This document shows, one piece after another, positions 27,879 to 48,101 of a stretch of DNA of 64,000 nt. The position numbers and the translations under genes were made by a program. The notes under the pieces are model-generated. The model was not told the DNA's origin and made no database searches. It saw nothing but the letters and a program-made list of their open reading frames with translations. Source of the DNA: Tubulanus polymorphus (taxonomy: Eukaryota > Animalia > Nemertea); NCBI RefSeq assembly GCF_964204645.1, contig NC_134025.1, positions 4,836,001 through 4,900,000 of the forward strand, written 5' to 3'. How positions within the stretch are numbered: the first letter of the stretch is position 1; each line of letters starts with the position of its first letter.

Positions 27879-28481
27879 TCAGAAAGAAAACCCCATTCGG
27901 TATGCGGATATTGTGAGATGTCCTGCAAACTCTCAGAACATTGATTAAGAATACTATTTACACACACCAATTAAGAGACATGAACAAATCTGACAGATTT
28001 TCATGGGAGATACCTTGCAAAGGGGTCGTATTGTATAGTGGATCAGCGCCTTTGGTGTTCGTATCGCATGACAGTATTTTAATACAGTATCCATCCAAAT
28101 AAACAAACGCGTTGCATATTACTGGCGGATCCCACAAGAATACCGTGAATGGTGGCCCAACACCCGCGGTACAAGCGCTCTGACAATCTTTAAAACTCAT
28201 TGAGACCATATTAGATCGATCCAACGAAGCACATTTTACCTGACGAGGTCCGTAAAACTCTACAACACAAATAGATTCCTTTGCAAAAATATGTACGAAA
28301 TTCATATTGAAGAATGCAATTTAGACAGCTTCAAATATATAAGAAATTCATATCGAAGAATGCAATTTAGACAGCTCACAAACACGACGATTTCAAAACG
28401 TGAAAATACGATTTTATATTCACCCTTTGCTTGAATTGAATAGAGAAGCACAAAAAATGAGCCGAAACTAAACAGAACCAT
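27879..28481 (-). CDS. Small secreted 6-Cys PAN/apple-like protein; exons 28481-28424, 28259-28014, then 27922-27879 or 27527-27283
   Basis: Signal-like MVLFSFGSFFVLLYSIQAK, phase-1 intron, EFYGPRQVKC...FKDCQSAC...VICNAFVYLDGYCIKILSC; GT-AG junctions in frame; last exon uncertain. Confidence 0.65.
28296..28382. repeat. ~46-bp direct tandem duplication in an intron
   Basis: gaaattcatat(t/c)gaagaatgcaatttagacagct occurs twice. Confidence 0.8.
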
Positions 28482-28867
28482 TGCGATAACCCTGACGTCC
28501 GCGACAAACAATTTTCAAATATCATTTAGCAAACAGCTTCTATCTAATTAAATATTTCATTATCCATCGACATTTTCTATCCAATATCGCAGAACCCTCT
28601 GTAGCAATTCACAGAACCACTCGATAGCCCCGCTAGAAAATTCCGAATGTAGCAAACATTATTATTGCGATGTCGAGAATATCACCAGCCGAAAAGACGG
28701 GTAATAGGCCTACTTAAAACTTGTGATGATGCGATGAGGAATGATTTGAACCGTTTTAAATACCGGTATATCACAAAACAACAGAAAAAGTATACAATTC
28801 AAAACCGTTTAATTTCTTGAGTTTGTAAGTATAGATTTGTACGGTTTAATCAGAAAGTAAAATTTCC

Positions 28868-29362
28868 TCACTTGCCTGGAACTAATGAAAAGAAGCGGTC
28901 TTTTCCTTCGGGTGAAAGATAGCATTTATTCACTTTGAAGCAGTAACCATTTTGGTAAACGAACTGTTGACATATTTTCTGTTCACCGAGATAAGCAGAA
29001 AATGGAACATCGGCTTTGCGACACGCTTCGGCGCACTGGGCAAACGTAACGACTCGGGCACTGGTATCGAGATTACATCGAGCCGAATACGGCCCGTACA
29101 GTTCTGGAAAATTCCAACGAAATTGAATTAAGTTGACTTTAATTCGTTAAAACTCGATGTATCTAAAATATTAGCCCAGAACTAAGATAATTTCTGAGGT
29201 TATGAAGAAAAATGTACTGAGCTATGAAAATAAGGCTACCGGGAAAAAACTTTTTTCGTGATACGATTAATATATAATACAATAATTATTTTACGCACCT
29301 GCAGTGATAATTGCCACGTATTCCCGACAATAGAATAATAACAAATAGTAAAAAAGACACAT
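28868..29362 (-). CDS. Paralogous small secreted 6-Cys PAN/apple-like protein (~99 aa); exons 29362-29299 and 29103-28868; absent from the ORF track
   Basis: MCLFYYLLLFYCREYVAIITA|ELYGPYSARC...TFAQCAEAC...KICQQFVYQNGYCFKVNKC...PGK*; all six Cys plus YGP, FVY and GYC align with the neighbouring gene. Confidence 0.7.
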
Positions 29363-30847: not shown

Positions 30848-33800
30848 CTAACCTAACTCGGTTGGTTTTATGTCTGTTAAAGTCCACCCACCCTTGCCGT
30901 CCAGATGCAGCTGACAATCATGATATTGTTTCAAAGATTCGCGATGTCCAACTGACAGTACTGTTATACCCAATTCACGACATAAGTTATACATAGTGCT
31001 TTCAGCCTGTAATCCTATCTGACTAGTCGCTTCATCGAGAGCTGAAAGGTACAAAACAAAATCAGATATCAAAATATATCCTCTTAATGAAGTCTTACTT
31101 AATCAATGTTTTCCCTTCAATAACCTTCTACCCAAATATGCGATACCAGTTATCAAGGTAGTTAAATGTGGGTTATCTATTTGTAATATAAAATTTTCCA
31201 GGACTTATATAAGAAAGAAAAAATTAATTTGCGGTAAAAACCTATGTGCCCCAGTAGGCCGTAAGCATTTTTGTACCTATAGTAATTATGTACGTACCCG
31301 CAAAATGTGGCTTATGGTAAAAAAGCCGTACAAACGAAAGTCTTTGCATCTCACCAGGAGACAAAACATCGAACCTAATCAGAAGAAAAACGCATTCATC
31401 AAAAAATAAATAAGGGTTAACTAACTGGATTTCGCCAGTTACAGCAGTAGGGATTGAATCAGCATACCAATTAATATCCTGTGAAGTATCTAAACCACCA
31501 ACTCTGCCAACAACAGCCGTAAGATCAGCACATTCCAGATAATGATTTATATCTTGATCTGAAAAGATATCATTTCACTTTCTAAAACTCAAATCTCACT
31601 GAACCTTTAAACACTACTTTCCTATCTATATAACGTCATACTTTACCTTGCGATGGTTTCTTTATTTTGGCTGGAAATACAATCTGTTCTCGCAATGTTC
31701 CATTCGTAAAATAAGGCTTCTGTGGTAGATAAAACATACCATTCGGTCCAATCGGCACAAACCGTTCTACTGACCCTGTAATAGAGTCAAGCACCATCAG
31801 ATCCAGTTAAGTCAGATTACGTTTAACCTTTTGAATCAAATAAAAAATTTTTTCTGAACTTATTTGGTACGGAAAATTACTAACCTGAGTAATTCGTCCA
31901 TAGTTGGCCCAGAACTCGTAACAATGAACTTTTGCCACAACCACTTTCTCCAGTGATGAGAATGTTTATTTTAGGGGATATCGTTAGATCTAACCCTGAA
32001 ATAGACAATTCACTATGGGACATTTGAGTTTGACATGTCAAGCCCATGCTTTAAGTTTGACATTAAGAAGTGCAAATGTTCCTCGGTTTGCACACTTTCT
32101 GTCAAAAAGGGTCAACACTACTCCCTAACAATTACAATACTAATGTTAATCTAGAGAAATATTCATGTACCTTTGAGCATTACTTCATCAGTGGTTGGAA
32201 GACAGTACATTAAATCTTTAATTCGATATCCGACTGTAGTTATTTCTTCTATGCTAACGACAGAGCTGAAAATTTAGGTTAATTACAAATTCCATTTGTA
32301 CAAAAACATTTCCAATAATTTGATAATAGCATTAGAACAAAATATACGTACTTAGTATTTGCACTAATGAGAGTAGAAGTACTGTTTACCGCTTGTGCCT
32401 CATCAACTGTATAAACTGATTCCTTTGGTCCATAACTATCATCCTCAAATGTGTACTCGTTCAATGACTCAATTAGCTGACATATACTGCAAAGCAACCA
32501 ATTGTGAAAGTTTATTTTCTAGAGGCTTCTGAATTGAGTTATAAACAAAAAGCTTGCACGTACCGGTGGGCGGCTCCAGCAATATCACTAACACTGATGG
32601 ACATGTCAATAAGCTTTGTGAAACAGCTGATCAGATAAATGGATACAAATGCATTCTGAAAATAATAAGATAATTTCAAAGTATTTGTTGAAAAGCAGAA
32701 TTACAAGTATTTCTGTAAAATCTAAAAATATTTTGGGAAACCACTATTTGTCAGAAAATATAGTTCTTAAGTCTAATCATCTTAATACGATAACTTACCT
32801 TGCTTATCAATGCACTAAGGTCTGCATTACTCAATGCATCATACTTGCCAGCAAAAATAGGAACCGCAATCGCGACATAGCTCAGAATACTGCCGATATA
32901 ATCAGCAAGTTGAATGGAAACTGCAATTCAAGAATATATGATGGAATTGGAGAGATTTATTTCGAACTTGATAAATCAAATATCTGAAAGATACTTACAG
33001 TTGAGTGCATATTTTCGGTTCATTAATCTATGCTGAGTTGTTATTAGCTCGTCCATCTTATGATTTGCTTTACTCCATTCGATATTTCCAGCACGATAAA
33101 ATGCAACAGCTTCAGCGTGTGACCTAATTTGCATGTGTTTGTATCTACAGTGAGAAATCATTTACACACAATCAAGTCAAGTATTGAGTTATACAGTGTA
33201 CATGTACAAACGTTGCATAAACATTCAACTTAGATAATTGAACTCACCTGAAGTCACCTTCTTTCTTCTCTTGTTTGACAAAGTATCTAATGACTGGACT
33301 CATGAGAAAGCGATTAATTGTAGTCATAATGAGGAAAAAGATGAAAACGCTCAACGGACCAATGTAACCAGTACTAGAAAAACACAGTAACAACATGTGA
33401 TGGTTAGAACCATTAGACTACCCCTCATCTATTTCAAGCATCCCCCTATCTAATTGCTACAAAATATTCTCAGTCACACTTATTAGTATTTCAACGATAC
33501 CAAGAAATGTAACCTCCAAAATTCTGACCTTGCACGACACTAGCATTAGCATTGAATGCATAGTGACAAAGTTCTTCATTGTTAATGAAATGAAATATAT
33601 GTATATCGTTGTCTTGAAGATATTCTTAGAAAGATCATGATGATATTCTGAGAAATTATCAGGTCACATTCCTTAGAAAACTGATGTAAACCCAGTTTTT
33701 AGATCAACATACTAGCTGGTATTATATATTGCTGAAATCAACAACTAACCATTAATGTATTGCTGCTTTTCCTTACCTTGTCCAGGCTTGATAAATATAA

Positions 33801-34835
33801 TAGCCTATAGTAAATGGTGAAATAAGAAGCACTGCTATGATTTGGCTCAATGTATTACACATCTTATCTACATCTTGCGTTATTCTTTGATCTCTGAAAT
33901 ATTGAAAAGAAGTTGTCAGACTACAAACTTCAAAGATACTCAGGAGAGGTATCTTAAGGTAAATAAAATATCATAAAATGACAAAATGGAAAAAAGTTCA
34001 AACTTACGGATTATCAATACATTTGTCACGTATGTTGACGTTATAGAATGCAGTTCCTTTGAAGTATAAATTGTGTAAAAATCTTGTGATCAGTTCCCGC
34101 CATCGAATATACAAAATTGACGCCATGTATAACATAGTACTATGAATCTAAAATAAAGAAAGACATTGGAAATAAAATGGAGAGAACTTAGGCTACAAGA
34201 ACAGAAGATTGAACAATCTTTCATAAATTCCTGAGAATATAACTTCATTGATAAGAATAAACTTACGAAAGCAATGGATACAATTAGTATCGACGCCATT
34301 ATCAATTCGTGCTGAAATCCTATATTGTCTTTTTCACTCAGCGTCTTATAAAACTTGCTCGGTATGATTCCGATTTGATAAATAACGACTTGTTCTAAAA
34401 ATGCAAAAATTGATTGATCATACTGTAGGAAACTGCTGAAGGAATGCCATACTAGCAATAAATCTATTATGGGATTCAATAATGAATTATCGTTAACAAC
34501 AAACTCAAAATTCAGCTGTTGAAAAATACACTACTCATTTAGAATAATTCAATCACAAAATCATTTAAATTGAGTTTTATTACCCTGGACCCAGTTCCAC
34601 AGTTGTGAGTTAGAGTTAACTCTGAGTTAAAGTTAGTTCATTTTCAATGTTTTAGGCCTAACCCAGGGTCAAATCTTAACTCAGAACAGTGGAACTGGAC
34701 CCTGGGTACTAATGATCTCGTACCTAGTAGCGAAGTGCATAATAATAAGAGGAACAGCAGAGAGGTCGGAGAACAGACTGATGGAAACATCAGCTTCAGT
34801 AGAAAAAACAGCCTCTTGATGAACTTCATTACCCT
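30848..34835 (-). CDS. ABCD4: ABC transporter D family member 4 (lysosomal cobalamin exporter), ~15 exons; first coding exon uncertain
   Basis: [48 protein letters not shown] (EAA), Walker [17 protein letters not shown], signature LSPGEMQR, Walker B ALDEATS, SVGHR; collinear with ABCD4 as I recall it. Confidence 0.93.
34581..34708. mobile_element. MITE (~128 bp) in an ABCD4 intron
   Basis: TIRs taccctggacccagttccacagtt / aacagtggaactggaccctgggta; internal gagttaa repeats. Confidence 0.75.
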
Positions 34836-35597
34836 AAAAAACAGATTCGTTGCATTGCATAGAATAAAGACCCTAAAATTATCTAGAAATCAAAATAATT
34901 TTTTGAAGAACAAAGCGGCCCACTCAATTGTTTCCTCACATTTACGATGCCATGTATTAATAATAAGTGACAACATTTCATTCAGTCTTGCAAACCCAAT
35001 CAATGATTCCCTAATCATAAATTCCCTAAACTATCATCCTTGTAAGTTAGTTGTGTGTGGGTAACCTTCAAACTTTTTGTTGTAGTAAACTCTTGGTAAT
35101 CTATTTTGTAGTAGGGTTAGCGCAACAATTTAACTTGATTTATTATCATGTTTCATATCACTCACGTAACGTTATCAATAAATCGGTTGCGTCCACTGTT
35201 CGAATTTAAATGAGATATCATCTCTCAAACGACCGTCCACGACAGTTGTACGTGAGCATGCACGTCCGAGACAGAAATGACACATGTTGCACTGTTGACA
35301 GCATATTTATATGCCCCCGAGAATCACCGCTACGTGGCGCTCAAACTATATTCAATAAAACACGGATTGGGTCCGATTACCTAAAGCACGGTTAAGGATC
35401 AATACATATATTCCTCACGGCGGTATAGTCGCATTCTTGAAAATGAATACCAACACAGAAATGTCTCCCACTTTTGCAAAATGAATCTAGTAATTCGCAA
35501 TTCGGTTGGTTTCAATCAGGCGTGGAACAGGGGGGACCGTAGTTTATAACCCACTATATACAGAATCTAAAATATTGAAAACGAATTCTATTTCAAA

Positions 35598-35644
35598 ACA
35601 CGATGTTTCGCCGCGAACTCTCGCTAGACTCATCTGCCGGGTGA
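35598..35644 (-). ncRNA. Degenerate hammerhead-like motif
   Basis: Minus strand CAGATGA-gtctagcga[gagt]tcgcggc-GAAA-catc-gtg; U4 replaced by A and stem I weak. Confidence 0.35.
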
Positions 35645-36338
35645 TAAGCCTTCCGATAATTCACCAAGAAGCCGTAGAGTCGATGTTCTCGGGTATGTTA
35701 GGATCGAAGGGCGCTGTAGGAGGAAACAACATTTCTCATCCAGGACCGACTTGGTGACTCAAGCCGATACAACGAGATGATGCCTGCGGACTCTCAAGGC
35801 AGAGCAGCCCGACTGGGTGCGATTGAAAGACGGATATCCAAATAAGAAAAACTAGAACGACTGGTTTTTTCCGTGAAATATGCAATAACATGGAATGACA
35901 TGTTTTTTCTTGCTTGTGAACAACATTGACTAGAAAATAATATGTAAACTACTACATACTTGGATTTTTTAGATTCACATACACAATGCAGTCGCTGAAA
36001 CATAACTATTTATCATAATTTTGGCAAAAATACTGAAAACATTTCAAAACAGAATATTTTTATAAACATTTCAACATTGAAACAATAATGGAATATCTAG
36101 ACTCTATCTAAACCTTGGTGGGTCGTAGTCACTTCTCCGTTGAGCGTGGAAGAATGACTTCGATTGCTACAGGCGTTGCTTCGCTGATAACAGCTAAGTT
36201 ATAGTAGGACAGAATAATGATGATTGTGATACGCGTTCGAACACAAAACATGTTGAAATAGAGGATTAATTTGGTTATATCCATCTGATGCGCAACGGTT
36301 CTTTGTTCCATCCACCACGCCCATCGATTCCAGACAGA

Positions 36339-36923
36339 TCACAACCAGCCGCTGTCTAACCCCACATTATCATCGTATACAGCCTTTTCTTTGGCGCATT
36401 TCTCTACCGATATTCCCTGTAACTTTGATAAAGTTCGGTAGACTTCACCAAATCTTGCATTCGCCTCTTCCCAGGCGCAGTTGTACAATCGCAGCGTTAA
36501 AATGCGGTACGTCGTTTCGACCGTGTCGTCTTTACGGCCGCTTTTTTTCAAAGCCGATCGCGACAGACGACACGACGGCTGCACTTTCGCTTCGATATCA
36601 TCGAACATTGCGGCTCTGTCACCGCGCAACGTGAAATGAAACTCGTAGTATTGCGCACCGGTTAGCGCTACTCCTTTATTAGCGTGGAACGGTTCTTCGA
36701 TTTTTTTACGCACCGGAATTAGTCCACGAGCGGTTGCATCGTCTGCGAATTTTTCGGCGAGTTTTAGCGGGTCCTTTGTACACCACAACGAACACATCAA
36801 CTGCCGTCTGTTCTCGACGTCCGGTGGCAATTCAATCATGATCATTTTACACAGCGGATATTCATCGCACAGTCGTTGCATAGTCTCAACGTCGCCATCT
36901 ACCGTAACGTGTATTTCAAACAT
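36339..36923 (-). CDS. Intronless 194-aa protein resembling an uncharacterised bacterial/giant-virus family (twin ExH motifs, C-terminal D-x-N-x-x-LD-x-GW)
   Basis: MFEIHVTV...RKKIE...YYEFHFTL...LSRSA...ILTLR...EKAVYDDNVGLDSGWL; intact ORF, visibly more GC-rich than the flanks. Confidence 0.8.
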   Translation of the reverse strand: MFEIHVTVDGDVETMQRLCDEYPLCKMIMIELPPDVENRRQLMCSLWCTKDPLKLAEKFADDATARGLIPVRKKIEEPFHANKGVALTGAQYYEFHFTLRGDRAAMFDDIEAKVQPSCRLSRSALKKSGRKDDTVETTYRILTLRLYNCAWEEANARFGEVYRTLSKLQGISVEKCAKEKAVYDDNVGLDSGWL

Positions 36924-38295
36924 TTACTTAAACGTCTTTCCTAGATGAAATAAATCAATTGTTTTATCACAGACTCTCACCGTCCCAGAATGATTCGTTT
37001 TTTTGTAGATTATGCAGTCACATAAAATTCCTAATGATCCTCGTGATATTCCTCCCGCTTGAAATGAGCGAGCGTCGAGCGGTCAACCGTTTATACATCG
37101 TAAAATTTCACCATGTTGTTGCAATACGTTGCATCAGATTCTGAATCTGCCAGAATGTTCTAGTGTGCCGCGCCTCCTCCGCATTGAAATGATGCGCTCC
37201 CAGTAATAGATATTGCTAAACAGAGATACATACATACAGTGACCGATTTGTACTTCGATAACGAGAGAAATCCCACAATAAATTCAGCCAAAACTTTGTA
37301 CTTCGATACTTTCAAGGAGGCACGAATAGAGAAATAAACGATTGATATCTTGTTTCGATTGTTTGAGTTGAATATATTGTTGAATCAACAATGAAAGCTA
37401 GTCTGGAATTTTCAATTGCAGAAGCTGACCATTTTTTCCAAAGGAGGAAGCCATCTGCGATACAGTAACGAACAGTACATGTTCAGATGCGTACCGTGTT
37501 TACGAACAGCATGCGTTCTGCGAACAAGATCTTGCGTAAAACAATTCGCGCTCGAAACCTCACCTCCGAAAATAGCTACTAAGAGCCTATCAGAGACCCA
37601 TCAAAACCCTCTAGTGGTCCTTTCGTCTCAGAAGGTCAGAAGCAAAAGAACTGTGTTACCCGTTTCAGACATATTTTGGAACCAAAACAAAGCGCCTCTT
37701 AAAAACACCAGTGCAGCGGTCAAGGACATACGTATGGACAACAATCTCTTCGAGTTGTTTCATGAAAATTTTGTGACTCAAAATGCGTAAACCGATGGTT
37801 TGGCTGGGAATCTCATGAATAGGAGTATTTAGCCCCAGTAATTCCAGTTGCGAGCAATGCACGCTAGTAATAGGCTATTTTGAAAAAAAGAGTTCCGGTG
37901 ACTACAGTTAGGAAATCTGTCGAACCTATACTAAGGTCTACAAGGAAAGATTTTCCTTCGCGACAAATGATGAATCATCCGCTAAACCGAAAATAGCTTT
38001 GATTGAATCGAGTCCGGCATTAGAAATCTTGCGAACGAACGTAATCAATCTTCTTCAATCAGAGCGGTGTCCCTTAATCAGAAAGCGTGGGTAAATTTCA
38101 TCCAGTGGAATAGGCATTCCTTCAGTTTCTTATTTCATGTTTCATGATGTCAAAAATAATCGTCGACATTTTTGTTTTGACATTGAAATCTTCCAATTGT
38201 AGAAAACAAATTTGGTTAAGATTGATCACCAATTTATTCATATTGTTTTTAACAACTTTGTTGGTTTAAATGCACTGTGTCCTTTTCAATTTTAT

Positions 38296-40614
38296 TCACG
38301 AGTTTATTGCAGATGTGGATTCTTTCGTCGTCTTTTTGGCATCATGTTGCTTTTTAACTGCCTGCCGAATTCCCTCACCTATTTTGCTGATAAGAAATTC
38401 GAAAACGATTTTCCAAGCTTTCTCAATTTCATCGGTATAGCAGTCTTGTAATATTTCTTTGAAGGCAAATCGCACTGCAGGCCACATTCTCTGGAAATAC
38501 ATAGAAGTTTTTATTGCATTACCCACAATCGATACCCATGGTATTGCCATTTAATGGTATTGCCTTTTAATGAAAACCATGATGCACAATCACAGAGATT
38601 ATGCAGTATTTTTGCCGTTTAAATGACCAGTTTTCCCGGTGTCTAAAAACTTAAATACTCACTGGGAGCATGTGCTCTTTGACGTGATGTTGTGCATGTT
38701 TTTCACCTATTGCGATCAAGACATTAGTTAAGAATAAGGAATCTTCCAGGCTTTCGACTGCAGCACCCAGAGACTGCATGACTATCAACGAATGCTGGGA
38801 TAACTTCTCCTCGTCCACGTCGCTTTCATCATAAATTTTGTTAGTCGTTAGAATGCTCTTAAAGACACGGAGCAAATCTCGATCGAGTTGAAATAGCCTG
38901 GAATATATTTGTGAGAGAGAAAATGAACACGATGAAATTAAAAACAAATCGTTTATCGAAATAGGTACGTCTGTACTAATCATAATGTATTAATAATGTG
39001 CTTATACTCCTTACTTGTACTACTATATATAATGCTTTAATCAATCGTCTATTTCTCGAAGATTTTAAATCCTGTGCGTTATAGAAATAGTTTGAGGATA
39101 TAGAAATACAGTAAAATGATATGCGTATTCTAATAATTCAATATATTTAAGAGTTCAAAGTGTTTTTGATACTCAGGGCAGACAGACACTTGATCGAAAT
39201 CATACTTCCTAGAGAGAGAGAGAGAGAGAGAGATGAAATAGCACAGTGAAAATCAACAATGTTATCAGTATTACCATCATCATCTTATTTCTTTTTTAAT
39301 TTTAGATAAGTATTGATGCAAGATTATTTTCACAGACATACGACAATTACATAGTACGTACAATCACACGACATTTTAACAAAGTTAGTTATTTTGAGTT
39401 ATTTCGTCTAGATTGTTCCAAATTATGGGTCCTTTAATGCTCAAATATTGGTGTATATATATATATATATATACGTTTATATCGAGGAGCGTCTAGAGAT
39501 ATTCACAAGGGCACGACTGCCAAGAATCTGAATCCTTCCGATATACTATAGCTAAAATGAATTTCATCAAATCAATCGGCTGATTACCTAAATGACCTTA
39601 TATTTTCCAATAGATGTTGACTTAACGTACGCTTTGAACTGGATTCAATACATAATCTCTGCACCCCGTATAATTGATTTCGTTATTAATAAACACGAGC
39701 AAGGAAGGATATTCTATATTCGGTACTTCTATGATTGAAAACCGCTAGGTGAAGGCTGGAGCATATTTTTATATTTTGCCTCGGGGGATTTCGATTTTTG
39801 ATTCGGAAAAATATGCATACATATATATGCCTTAAAACACGGGTGGGGATTAAATCAGAGAATGAAATGATAGCTACAAATATTGTATTCATTCGTGTTA
39901 CAAATTCTAATTGGTGGGAATTAATGATGTATATATTTCGATTGCGCTAATTGATTCGCAGTGAAATTGAATGCTTCCACAAGTGAATTTCATTACAATT
40001 CATTTTATTCGCCGTTATCCATACCACATATTGTACCGGGCAAAATTAGTTTTGTAGGATTCAGACGAGAAAGCATTTATTTCAAGATTCGCAATTTTAT
40101 CAGCAGTTAAACGATTTCTTTTTGTAATTAGTGTTTCTTCGAATACACAACTTAGGTCCATATATAAGACCAGCATCAATGTCTGAAATCGTTAGTTTAT
40201 GTCAACTTCGAGGTATTCATCTCCTTGATGGAATTATCTTTGTCAATGCACACTGGTATGTGTTTCTGACATGATAATTGATTGATGATGGCAAAAAACT
40301 GGCAATATAAGATGTTTTTAAGTGGCGTTTGTGTCATTTTTCATTTAACATATTGAAAAAGAGGTTTGACAGATGTGGCTGCGTGGAAGAAAATCAATGT
40401 AGAATCAATTATATACGAACGTGCGTAATGAATGAAGTGACAGCGTTCAAAAAATTCGTGAAACTTACCTCATAAATATCATCATTCCATTATTCTGTAA
40501 GTTATCCGATACTATTTCCCATGACATTCGTATTAGGTCGATTTGTTTTTGATCCAAGTGAATGTGAATTTGTGAGCCTTCCAGACGAACTTGTTTGTGT
40601 GCGGCGCAACCCAT
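38296..40614 (-). CDS. Globin (globin X/neuroglobin-like, N-acylated), exons 40614-40469, 38897-38663, 38490-38296 (191 aa)
   Basis: MGCAAHK...LIRMSW...IFMR|LFQ...RVF(CD1)...SQH(E7)...EKH(F8)...AWKIVF; introns at phase 2 and phase 0, matching B12.2 and G7.0. Confidence 0.92.
39211..39233. repeat. (AG)n microsatellite
   Basis: agagagagagagagagagagaga. Confidence 0.9.
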
Positions 40615-44731: not shown

Positions 44732-45060
44732 AAATTTTTTTGACCTAACGTTTGTCTAGATAAGGCCGTAATCGCATAAAGCCCCATATATGCCATAAAA
44801 CACCGGATACTAACCGACAATTAGTTTACTGTAGACAACATTTTCTAATTTCGTTGATCCGGATACCGACACTATCCGTCCTCCATACGGAATCATCTGA
44901 CATGACGGAGATGTATACAGAGAGGCTGAAAGGGTTAATCTGAAGTAGCCACATTCCCGGTTAGAGTCACATACGGCTTTACAAGCAGGAATGTCATAAA
45001 TGTGGTAAGCCGATCCAAGTTTATCAAGTTCTAATTTACGTGGTATGTATCGATATCCAG

Positions 45061-45216
45061 ATACATCTAGAAAATAGAGAAGTCGATATGTTCATCAGCG
45101 AAATCAACAAACTTATAAATAGTGACAGAGATTCTTCGACGAATCTTAAAGAAATATTAAATTATTCTGATTTCGCACAAGACACACAGCACAGAGTTTT
45201 CATTGCCGTTTTGCAA
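45061..45216 (+). CDS. Candidate coding exon, possibly an upstream exon of the 49130-50809 gene
   Basis: tatccag|IHLENREVDMFISEINKL...VFIAVLQ|gtacgt; its phase-0 end is compatible with the phase-0 acceptor at 49130. Confidence 0.35.
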
Positions 45217-45939
45217 GTACGTAAATTATTACGTTCCGGGCAATAGGGGGCGTGTTATACTTACGTAGTTTATTCAACATGTATACTTTATACGAATACA
45301 GAAGAAACGGATAAGGTACTGTTTGATTTTTGTACGAAAGCAAGTTGCAAGACGTCGCAGTTTCAGTGGACCCATACACTCGTTGCTTATTGTCGTAGAA
45401 TATGGTTATCCTAACACAATCCGGCATCGAGTCGCAAGTCGTTCTTAATTGTGATATCGATGCTGTTGTATTCGGTACACGTCCACACCAGAAAAACCCA
45501 TATAAGTACGTGTAACCCGGGAGTCCTATGAAATACGTAATAAAGGATAGAAATGTGTACAGTTATTTGTTTGTCAGAAATGAATGTCAAATATCTCAAA
45601 GAATTCGCCGAACTTTGTGATAACGTGAAATATATTCGTTTATCGATACATTACGTTAGTTCAAGTACTATACACTCAATGGAGATCGAAACAAACGTGA
45701 TACACGATGATTTTATAATGTATCTGTTTTATATACAATAAACCTCACCCTAAACTTGGACAAACTGGGGCCGCCGCAAAATTGGTCCGAGGTAATCAAA
45801 GTTACGTAAGGATAGGAGTATACGTTAGGAAGTCAGAAAAACGATTTCGCTTTTGTTCGGGTTGTTAGTCAAAAGTCCGCGTTGGCCATGTCCGAGTAAG
45901 GCGATGTTAACTGTGGAAATGAAACACGTAAAAAGATGA

Positions 45940-48101
45940 CTAACTTAATCGGTCGTAAAAGAATATGGTGTCGTTTGACTGCGTAGTCACAGCGCATGTC
46001 GTATTTCGAGCGCGGCCGGTCAAATGGCCAGTAGTTTCGCTAGCGAACATAACAAATCCGGTGCAGTTTTCATCTACATCACAGGATGCCGCCAAGGAGG
46101 AAAAATTGGTTGCGGTAGTCGGCGGGAGTGTCATTTCATCTGCACACACTCCATTCCGTAAAAGGTAATCTCTGACTGAAGAAAAAAGGAAAAAATATGG
46201 CTCGTGACGACAAACAACAACGTCATGAACGAAAAATGAATTAACGATCGAATGCATCTGTTACGATGGCACGCGTACCATTCTTATCGTAAATGTAGTA
46301 ACCTTGTTCTTGTTTGCTCGGTTCGATACAGGTTGTCTCCAGTAAGTAACCATTAAAAAGTGATTCTGCACCTTGATCGTAGACTCCCGCAACAGTAAAA
46401 CCGACACAACTCGCATGCTTGTTGCATTGCGTTTTAAACCAATCAATATTCTTATTTTCGGTCTTTTTGGTCAAGTCGAAACAGTTAAAGTCCCTTCGTA
46501 AAATATATCCTTTGACATCTAAATGAAGAAAACGAAGAAACAAAGGAGACATCTTGAAGTTTATTTGGATATTTTGTGTTGGTCCCTCGTCGAAGACCTC
46601 GAGTCTCCTGAGATACAAATACATGCGAGGGTTAAACGCTTGAATAAACCATCCATTCAAAAGTTAAAGCTAATAAGAATATGCAGATTCCTGTTATCAT
46701 TCTCATTATATTAACGAATTGTTCTCAGTTTCATTAATCATAAACCTTTTAGAATTTCCTCGACTAATGGGAAATCCTTCCTTTGTCGTTCGAATACAAA
46801 TTGGAGCAAACCAATTTTTCTTTCGAAATGTGTGCTTAGATACCTTTTATTCAAACCCCAGAAAGCTTCCGCTTTTCATGCAATGAATTTATACGTTTAT
46901 GAAAACACTGAAGTTATTAATGGCTTAACGTCGGATTCCGTTTATCACAAGATGAATTGCCTTGTTTAAAAGCGGATGATCGCATCCATACCAGGTAGTC
47001 AGCTAGCTATATTGATGGAATTTATGAAACTGCTGAGTGTCAAGGAAACATTCTAATCTGTTATTCGTGTTTACATTCACACAACATCATGGTCCGCTTT
47101 CTTCTTGTAAAAAAAAGAGTTTTTACCGAGCCGTGGTTAGGAAATGAAATTGCGACGCAGTTTTATTACTAACACGCCTAATAATATTCCGGCGTCTTCC
47201 GGTCGCGTTGAGACTCACAAAAACTAGTGAAAAATTCTCGCCGAATATTTATTTTATGCGGCCATATTCATTTCATCAAATATGGTCGCATAAAAAAGCG
47301 AATGCGAATCAAGTCAACCGAATATTAATGGAACGAGGTTCCTGTCTGTAGTTACGGGGGGGGGGAATCCAACCGCGCACGTTATTTGACGGTCGCTTTT
47401 TAGTGAAATCTAGTTGATTTCATATTGAATAATGTTTTTATAGATGATTTAAGATGCGGCGCCGGTGAAATATCGATTATTCACCATAAGACACTTCACC
47501 GCAAGAAATCATTTCTCCAGAACGTCATTTATCAGCAATAAATTGGCGCGTTGTCATCGCCGCTGATTTGGCGACGCCATAATATGTAGCCGCGTAGAAT
47601 TTCCAGTATTCCGGCGACGATGCTCTAGAAAACCGACAACTTACCTAGTAATCTACCTAAAACTAAATCGAACAATTATACATGATACTGATTTCTAAAT
47701 GCATTGAATTTGCTTCACGGTTTTTGAACTGCACGTGAAGCTAAATACCGTGTGTGAAAATAAGATGAAAATGATTCACATTATCAGCAACAGCAGCCAG
47801 TATCTTCTAGATGAATATATAGTGAAGTTAATGATTTATCAAAAGTATATATGTAATATTCAAATCTTGTAAACTAGATTTTTACCGCTCGTAGTTGCTC
47901 ACGTTTGAGAAAAGAGTTTATCATATTTTTTCTTAATAATGAATACTTGAAACTTTTCAAATTGAGAACCTACGAAATGATGAAATGAGTTGGATAATAA
48001 ATTTCTTTACCTGGAACCGAATTTCGTTGAGGAAATTGTATAATAAACGTTAATACCAAGAAAAATCTCTTACAAGTCAGCCAGTAGGTAGAGAGCACCA
48101 T
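45940..48101 (-). CDS. Secreted protein with two PAN/apple-like modules; exons 48101-48011, 46518-46279, 46175-45940 (~188 aa)
   Basis: Signal-like MVLSTYWLTCKRFFLVLTFIIQF; module 1 GYILRRDFNC...QCNKHASCVGF...TTC...YIYDK; module 2 DYLLRNGVC...SCDVDENCTGF...TTC...FFYDR; all junctions phase 1. First-exon link is inferred. Confidence 0.6.
47252..47295. repeat. 17-bp-stem hairpin
   Basis: ttttatgcggccatatt / aatatggtcgcataaaa. Confidence 0.7.

Follow-up and report, generated by a model that had tools for sequence, protein, structure and literature searches.

By its sequence, an intronless open reading frame (ORF) of 194 codons in the nemertean Tubulanus polymorphus belongs to an uncharacterised protein family whose microbial members are encoded beside AbiEii-type nucleotidyltransferases and RNA-repair enzymes. 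The ORF is a real gene within the worm chromosome, and the most informative context for it is the operon of AbiEii and RNA ligase genes around its bacterial relatives, together with a match to models of the PADLOC database. We suspect that it encodes a metal-dependent phosphohydrolase, that it was gained sideways from a microbial-eukaryote or giant-virus lineage and that it is dispensable today, an overall account to which we assign a probability of roughly 0.42.

Within the 64-kb window, which is the whole stretch of DNA analysed here, the ORF runs uninterrupted on the minus strand from an ATG at position 36923 to a TGA ending at 36339 (Table 1), and its product ends in YDDNVGLDSGWL. An earlier note, made from the letters alone, had described an intact and intronless ORF between animal genes, and this description stands. 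None of 500 base shuffles of positions 35000-38400 gave an ATG-to-stop ORF of at least 194 amino acids. An exon of the intron-rich gene downstream on the same strand has human ABCD4 as its best match (E 1e-8), and a globin exon upstream is 100% identical to the NCBI neuroglobin-like protein of Tubulanus polymorphus. Also present, as the note had it, are an acceptor-like tttcatctag whose end lies 17 nt upstream of the ATG and, ahead of that start codon, an in-frame TAA; with the closest GT as donor, the candidate intron would span just 40 nt. The ORF had further been called GC-richer than its surroundings, which is correct in direction (GC 0.48 and GC3 0.52; four long window ORFs taken as host exons have 0.43-0.46 and 0.40-0.44), but relative to these presumed exons the excess is only modest. 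The window has one copy of the ORF. From the stop down to 35200 the minus strand has neither AATAAA nor ATTAAA, and Rfam gave no match in 34800-38400. The exact protein is absent from a collection of 15 billion sequences in which the adjoining globin is present, so the gene appears to be unannotated.

Table 1. Features of the locus, in positions of the 64-kb window
Feature	Position	Strand	Basis
Intronless ORF, 194 aa (P0001), PDLC02277/PDLC02279-matched family, predicted tandem ferredoxin-like fold	36339..36923	-	
N-terminal predicted ferredoxin-like half, residues 1-80 (E3, H5, K26, M43, R72, K74, E76)	36684..36923	-	model and conservation
C-terminal predicted ferredoxin-like half, residues 90-186 (Y92, E94, H96, S121, T143, R145, E179, D184)	36366..36656	-	model and conservation
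Tail YDxNxxLDxGW; D184, D190 and W193 invariant in 163/163 rows	36342..36377	-	alignment
Candidate 5'-UTR intron (GT..AG, 40 nt), with its acceptor 17 nt upstream of the start codon	36941..36980	-	sequence
Site of one-base insertion allele, sample S2 (runs X2, X3); frameshift at codon 66, stop at codon 73	36726..36727		
Probable deletion in one S2 haplotype; would remove codons from 133 on	35708..36527		matching loose contig ends
ABCD4, downstream host gene, intron-rich; coding limits by eye	30848..34829	-	
Neuroglobin-like, upstream host gene, last two exons	38296..38896	-	

A phmmer search of 1.84 billion representative sequences returned 99 relatives with E-values up to 0.001, the closest of which share 45% (P0003), 43% (P0002), 36% (P0004) and 34% (P0005) identity with the worm protein. 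P0005, the nearest named relative, is an uncharacterised protein of the ascidian Styela clava (XP_039274378, LOC120348324). Its annotated start is the equivalent of M43, through either a mis-called start or a truncated copy, and the first ExH motif (E3/H5), which the worm has, is therefore missing from the annotated ascidian protein. The PADLOC-DB 2.0 models PDLC02277 and PDLC02279, both labelled AbiEi, match the worm protein end to end (E 3.9e-21 and 1.4e-20), with the best match spanning 1-194 of 195 positions, and bacterial members score 1e-65 against them. The label seems to derive from gene neighbourhood, and we know of no function for either model. Pfam and NCBIfam gave no significant family for the worm protein, and none for 64 members, one stray S14 match aside.

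The family occurs in bacteria, phages and giant viruses, in line with what the earlier note said of bacteria and large DNA viruses, and also in the protists Tieghemostelium, Stenamoeba and Papus. It is infrequent, being found in 2 of 401 genomes of one phylum sample and in none of 14 controls. The C-terminal part (positions 309-440) of the MazG-like pyrophosphatase PHROG 1247 is the same domain (E 3e-5); the worm protein has this domain in common with it and lacks the MazG part. On one eukaryotic contig (L007:1-1404), a nucleotidyltransferase-like region is joined to the domain across a GT..AG intron of ~50 nt; the gene adjoining this fusion is F-box-like and, we presume, resembles rotifer genes. 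Scans of viral contigs for close relatives found none with the queries A4, A3, P0003 and P0050, and with A6 and A7 gave only three giant-virus-type contigs of another clade. The literature covered, mainly titles and abstract openings, holds no account of the domain or of the worm gene; the 2016 RNA-repair survey of Burroughs and Aravind reportedly may describe the domain.

Transfer into the worm is likely in our view, and an origin by a route other than vertical descent, from a protist or other microbial-eukaryote lineage or from a giant-virus lineage, is a plausible reading towards which we lean. The points counted for it are the lack of introns, the single named animal relative among the names seen and the giant-virus-adjacent position of the clade. 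That position comes from a tree of 57 rows, made up of 54 of the 163 rows, which span the groups of a first tree, and three loci, with a bootstrap that had not fully settled. The worm protein pairs there with P0003 (98/96) inside a clade of 19 rows (100/98) that holds also Styela, P0002 and 15 further rows; in the best tree the ascidian protein shares this clade, yet is not the sister of the worm protein. Bacterial, phage-MazG and amoebozoan rows all fall outside it, and the next clade is the one that contains giant-virus contigs (L070, L072), with moderate support (92/77, and 88/83 in a tree of 32 rows). Most labels in the tree stand for few named members: a single animal, four entries from protists and several from myxobacteria. 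In AU tests, whose groups were named after inspection of the first tree, the worm protein was rejected as a member of a group with eight bacterial-clade rows (p=0.003) and as the sister of just the giant-virus clade (p=0.013); a single clade of the four animal-like rows (p=0.38) and the worm clade joined to five protist-type rows (p=0.12) were compatible with the data. These results on bacterial, giant-virus and protist groupings make a direct bacterial donor appear unlikely.

The earlier note had expected a gene of prokaryote or giant-virus type, nested in the tree among bacterial or viral sequences and patchy among animals. A prokaryote-type origin is not supported in that form: grouping with the bacterial rows is rejected, and protists and Styela clava carry the family as well. 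The link to giant viruses survives as an adjacent clade but not as an exclusive sister relationship. The remark that the family was unfamiliar from animals is right as to its rarity among named animals but overlooks the ascidian member.

A rival history has no transfer into animals at all. The gene would then be an old eukaryotic one, kept in scattered amoebozoans, a kinetoplastid, ascidians and nemerteans and lost elsewhere, and its single exon would reflect intron loss or retroposition. We regard this as possible, if doubtful. It would accommodate the named protist members, the intron-containing eukaryotic member on L007, the closeness of the ORF's base composition to that of the host, and the compatibility of both the animal-like clade and the joined protist-type rows in the AU tests. 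However, it needs many independent losses, only one other animal is named, and the best trees part the worm/ascidian clade from the named protists and place it beside giant-virus sequences.

The worm protein has kept most of the residues conserved within the family. Across 163 domain rows, 24 columns are conserved at 80% or more, and the worm agrees with the consensus at 22 of these; ten positions are invariant in all 163 rows (R72, K74, E76, Y92, E94, R145, E179, D184, D190 and W193), each of them present in the worm, and H5 is found in 157 of 157 rows. The worm protein thereby retains the full series ExH, RxKxE, YxExH, R, E, D, D, W, and the motif chain given in the earlier note is visible in an alignment of 64 relatives. 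A two-fold internal symmetry, also noticed in the letters, emerges from a profile-profile alignment of the two halves (E 3.5e-5 over 75 columns) that pairs E3/H5 with E94/H96 and E76 with E179.

AlphaFold2, given the 64-sequence alignment, predicts two ferredoxin-like halves, each a strand-helix-strand-strand-helix-strand unit (pLDDT 92.6). Structure prediction and fold comparison had been suggested as a check; the model is confident, but solved structures match one ferredoxin-like half at a time, with best Z of 8.2 and 8.9 over ~80-88 residues (the N-terminal half was not queried alone). Foldseek matches reach TM ~0.3, LarC2 (6bwo, Z 6.5) and OxdB (7f2y, Z 6.9, rmsd 4.2, 174 aligned) are leads only, and a sequence search of the PDB gave no significant match. 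Whole-length matches come from predicted viral structures, where ten BFVD models align at E 4e-6 or better (TM 0.57-0.81); they belong to phages of Aeromonas, Acinetobacter, Rheinheimera and Sinorhizobium and to the giant viruses Fadolivirus, Bodo saltans virus, Yasminevirus and Klosneuvirus. These Klosneuvirinae and phage proteins share the domain of the worm protein and are themselves unannotated. In the ESM Atlas, viral and bacterial clusters match at 0.91-0.92 with low recognition value, and no match there is named. The conserved polar residues alternate along the strands, from which we infer that they would face one pocket. We set aside a reading of the paired His residues as those of a 2H phosphoesterase, since the predicted fold is a different one and most members have HxK as their second motif.

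The gene neighbourhoods of bacterial homologues, another check that had been proposed, proved telling. They were drawn from 61 loci, in myxobacteria, cyanobacteria, planctomycetes and others, that patterns derived from a single bacterial subfamily picked out of species genomes. This subfamily is distant from the worm protein, and because all the patterns stem from it, the counts are not independent events. An AbiEii-type nucleotidyltransferase gene lies directly downstream at 54 of these loci, or 56 by looser clustering, and two of the seven misses have less than 250 bases of downstream sequence. An RNA ligase is encoded within 4.5 kb at 24 loci (37 are without a nearby ligase), and Ham1 is fused to the domain at 18. 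Neighbour identities were confirmed by Pfam on representatives. No other neighbour recurred across the 61 loci outside close kin, and no end-healing phosphoesterase was recurrent in these operons. Loci found with other queries have similar arrangements: ligase, family gene and AbiEii on a Deinococcus plasmid, family gene then AbiEii on a Kitasatospora plasmid and at L078, and Hen1, RlaP, family gene and AbiEii at L077, where the locus ends inside Hen1, which reaches 294 bits for a cut-off of 340.

Fusions tell a related story. In 38 of the 99 phmmer hits, chosen mostly by length, the domain is fused to Ham1 nine times, to Pol-beta/RlaP twice, and once each to a MazG-like domain and to AbiEii plus RNA ligase. 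The last of these, P0007, combines AbiEii, Ham1, the family domain and RNA ligase, and P0069 and P0083 are the other fusions linked to RNA repair. MazG-like fusions number 12 of 74 in a further count, and 10 of 11 fused Ham1 domains are without the SHR motif. Four phage loci were viewed: XacN1 and phiM12 encode an RNA ligase three genes upstream, and no repair gene was seen near the copies of Xoo-sp13 and LAh_8. Linkage to RNA ligase, RlaP and Hen1 is thus recurrent among the microbial members, to which this observation applies; in the 64-kb worm window, tblastn with AbiEii, ligase and Ham1 seeds gave no match at E 0.01. Two genes at the phage loci were deposited under other descriptions: ORF260 of XacN1 (L002:1587-2237), entered as a 2'-5' RNA ligase, has its match in PF09414, a family of ATP-dependent RNA ligases, and a "hypothetical" gene of Xoo-sp13 (L001:5642-6784) matches the major capsid protein Gp23 (E 6e-67).

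By analogy with the company its relatives keep, the worm protein is probably a metal-dependent phosphohydrolase of some kind: where an operon already supplies a ligase and a nucleotidyltransferase, a third protein with putative metal- and phosphate-holding residues would most simply be a hydrolase. A metal-dependent enzyme acting on a phosphate or nucleotide substrate had also been the guess of the earlier note, and the invariant Glu, His, Arg, Lys and Asp residues, with partners that all handle nucleotides, are consistent with it. Among possible substrates we tentatively place RNA 3' ends or nucleotides added to them first, free nucleotides or pyrophosphate next, and a role as a binding antitoxin last. 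Published work describes how MenT relatives of AbiEii attach nucleotides to the 3'-CCA end of tRNA (bioRxiv 10.64898/2026.01.19.700257), how RlaP adds one or two NMPs onto RNA 3'-OH ends in repair (bioRxiv 10.64898/2025.12.29.696909), and how ATP-grasp ligases partner with RlaP and need end-healing phosphoesterases (PMC7824862). One attractive possibility is that the open sheet faces of both halves form a single pocket, in which Glu 3, 76, 94 and 179 with His 5 and 96 would hold metal and K26, R72, K74 and R145 would hold phosphate. In microbes the protein would then strip tRNA 3' ends of a phosphate or an added nucleotide, leaving them ready to be rebuilt by nucleotidyltransferase and ligase, and through the same activity it would hold AbiEii in check from its antitoxin position. 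The worm copy, for which this mechanism is borrowed from microbial relatives, has no partners nearby and would work on its own in cleaning up RNA or nucleotides.

The Ham1 and MazG fusions, however, favour free nucleotides or pyrophosphate over RNA ends. Ligases, nucleotidyltransferases and Ham1- and MazG-type enzymes all release PPi in their reactions. Since every partner, including both nucleotidyltransferases, uses NTP and releases PPi, the protein might instead be a small pyro- or triphosphatase, or a nucleotidase, that pulls the partner reactions or sanitises the pool. We consider this somewhat unlikely, even with Ham1 fusions in both the hit and locus sets, MazG-like fusions that include the C-terminal part of PHROG 1247, and four Glu with four basic residues, a mixture of Glu and basic residues also used by triphosphate-tunnel enzymes. 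Cells already possess pyrophosphatases, no known pyrophosphatase is among the structural matches listed, and the tight linkage to AbiEii, RlaP, Hen1 and ligase is RNA-specific.

Alternatively, the family could be a non-canonical antitoxin that binds AbiEii, used by phages and giant viruses as counter-defence, with the worm copy a decaying viral leftover that has no partner. Such a role would account for the position directly upstream of AbiEii and the PADLOC label, for phage copies with no AbiEii annotated nearby, for a worm window without similarity to AbiEii, ligase or Ham1 and for the null-like worm alleles described below. It is nevertheless improbable, as the ten polar or aromatic residues that are invariant from bacteria to protists, viruses and animals look catalytic, Ham1 or Pol-beta fusions are seen in eukaryotic copies, and the worm copy keeps every invariant residue despite only 45% identity to its nearest relative.

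The worm protein is not a canonical AbiEi in any case. The likeness to that family (COG5340, for example in Streptococcus agalactiae) is that bacterial members, including those of PDLC02277 and PDLC02279, also lie upstream of an AbiEii/DUF1814 nucleotidyltransferase, whereas the worm gene, whose whole product matches these models, had no AbiEii adjacent to it in the 64-kb window. In canonical AbiEi the N-terminal domain is a winged helix-turn-helix, and neutralisation works through an auto-phosphorylation that binding induces, as bioRxiv 10.64898/2026.01.19.700257 describes; the worm family, in contrast, has two predicted ferredoxin-like halves with enzyme-like residues. In place of the winged helix, the worm model starts with the first strand-helix-strand-strand-helix-strand unit (pLDDT 92-98), the Pfam winged helix-turn-helix profile finds a sub-threshold match at the C-terminus only (E 0.036), the family has no match to Pfam AbiEi, and no solved AbiEi is among the PDB and fold matches listed for the worm protein. 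A further comparison is with RNA-repair modules built from an ATP-grasp ligase, RlaP, Hen1 and end-healing phosphoesterases. The family shares operons with PF09414 and PF09511 ligases, RlaP and Hen1, and there it would fill the place of the end-healing enzyme, although its predicted fold is unlike those of 2H or HAD enzymes and it is not among the end-healing families named in section 21 of PMC7824862. The end-healing phosphoesterases of such modules are of the 2H, HAD and cRec types.

Should the preferred reading be correct and the family undo or prepare the modification of tRNA ends, it would count as a new enzyme class, and the defence-database label would be corrected. The family is of interest as one without a Pfam or NCBIfam model or any solved relative that we found, yet tied to AbiEii and RNA-repair genes in several bacterial phyla and carried by phages and giant viruses as well as bacteria. 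As the animal copy is small and free-standing, the chemistry can readily be tested on it, and candidate substrates follow from the operon logic. In animals it would add a further case of a microbial conflict gene in distant phyla, drifting between use and loss. The boldest version, in which an undescribed class of metalloenzymes heals or de-nucleotidylates RNA ends as partner of a large AbiEii subfamily, entered a nemertean and an ascidian independently via giant viruses and persists as a tRNA-protecting presence/absence polymorphism, strikes us as decidedly improbable.

That the ORF lies in the worm chromosome follows from reads of several samples. In run X1, possibly the source sample, contig depth is flat (ABCD4 33.8, ORF 32.7, globin 31.4), and each of the 30 bins is also covered, if at low depth, by run X5 of a different study; contamination is thus unlikely as the source of the ORF, just as had been argued from its setting. 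The even depth, along with alleles that vary in three samples, places the ORF physically in the host chromosome. We can dismiss an assembly artefact or contaminant sequence as very nearly excluded, for although no single record of the mapped runs bridges ABCD4, ORF and globin, or even the first two, and X1 may be the source sample itself, single-copy depth is flat across 12 kb, and two further samples, one of them from another study, carry SNP and indel alleles in and around the ORF. One run presumed to be RNA has zero coverage of the 12 kb, ABCD4 included, and is therefore uninformative.

The alleles themselves suggest a gene of uneven standing. Frames are intact in X4 and X5, where the differences are N148K, a double change at L142 and a change at G129, both of these silent, and, in X5 only, S128G; none of them is at an invariant residue. 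Sample S2 differs: two of its three runs carry an extra base behind 36726 that is found in 0 of 9 X5 reads, and its contigs have loose ends at 35707 and 36528 that share ten letters not found in the window. We read these ends as a probable 820-bp deletion in one S2 haplotype, no joint linking the two positions being listed among the S2 contigs. Thus, given a frameshift allele and a probable deletion in another sample, the gene seems to be dispensable in some individuals. Indicators of purifying selection are mixed, the invariant residues being kept, yet null-like alleles occurring in S2, and we give even odds that the worm gene is functional today. The term "domesticated", applied to it at the outset, is not borne out, given the null-like S2 alleles and the absence of the exact protein from the 15-billion-sequence collection.

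Several minor features of the locus deserve mention. At 36997, within a T run, the window is one T short of all mapped contigs and of 6 of 8 reads, which is probably an assembly error. A GC-richer single-copy stretch at 35600-35840, between the ORF and ABCD4, has neither a long ORF nor an Rfam match and lies mostly within the deletion inferred in S2. Very deep read pile-ups mark high-copy short repeats at 34585-34700, 35540-35580 and 37257-37294, the first of which lies within an ABCD4 intron and has inverted joints typical of a palindromic element. The observed-to-expected CpG ratio is 0.24-0.64 in most bins of the ABCD4 body (33001-35000; one bin has 1.2), versus 1.75-1.93 at 36501-37000 over the ORF, and this depletion in the one and enrichment in the other suggests gene-body methylation on ABCD4 and none on the ORF. 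Further away, at 27958-29146 and 44810-46663, short exons with spaced cysteines resemble, by eye, repeated PAN/apple-type modules.
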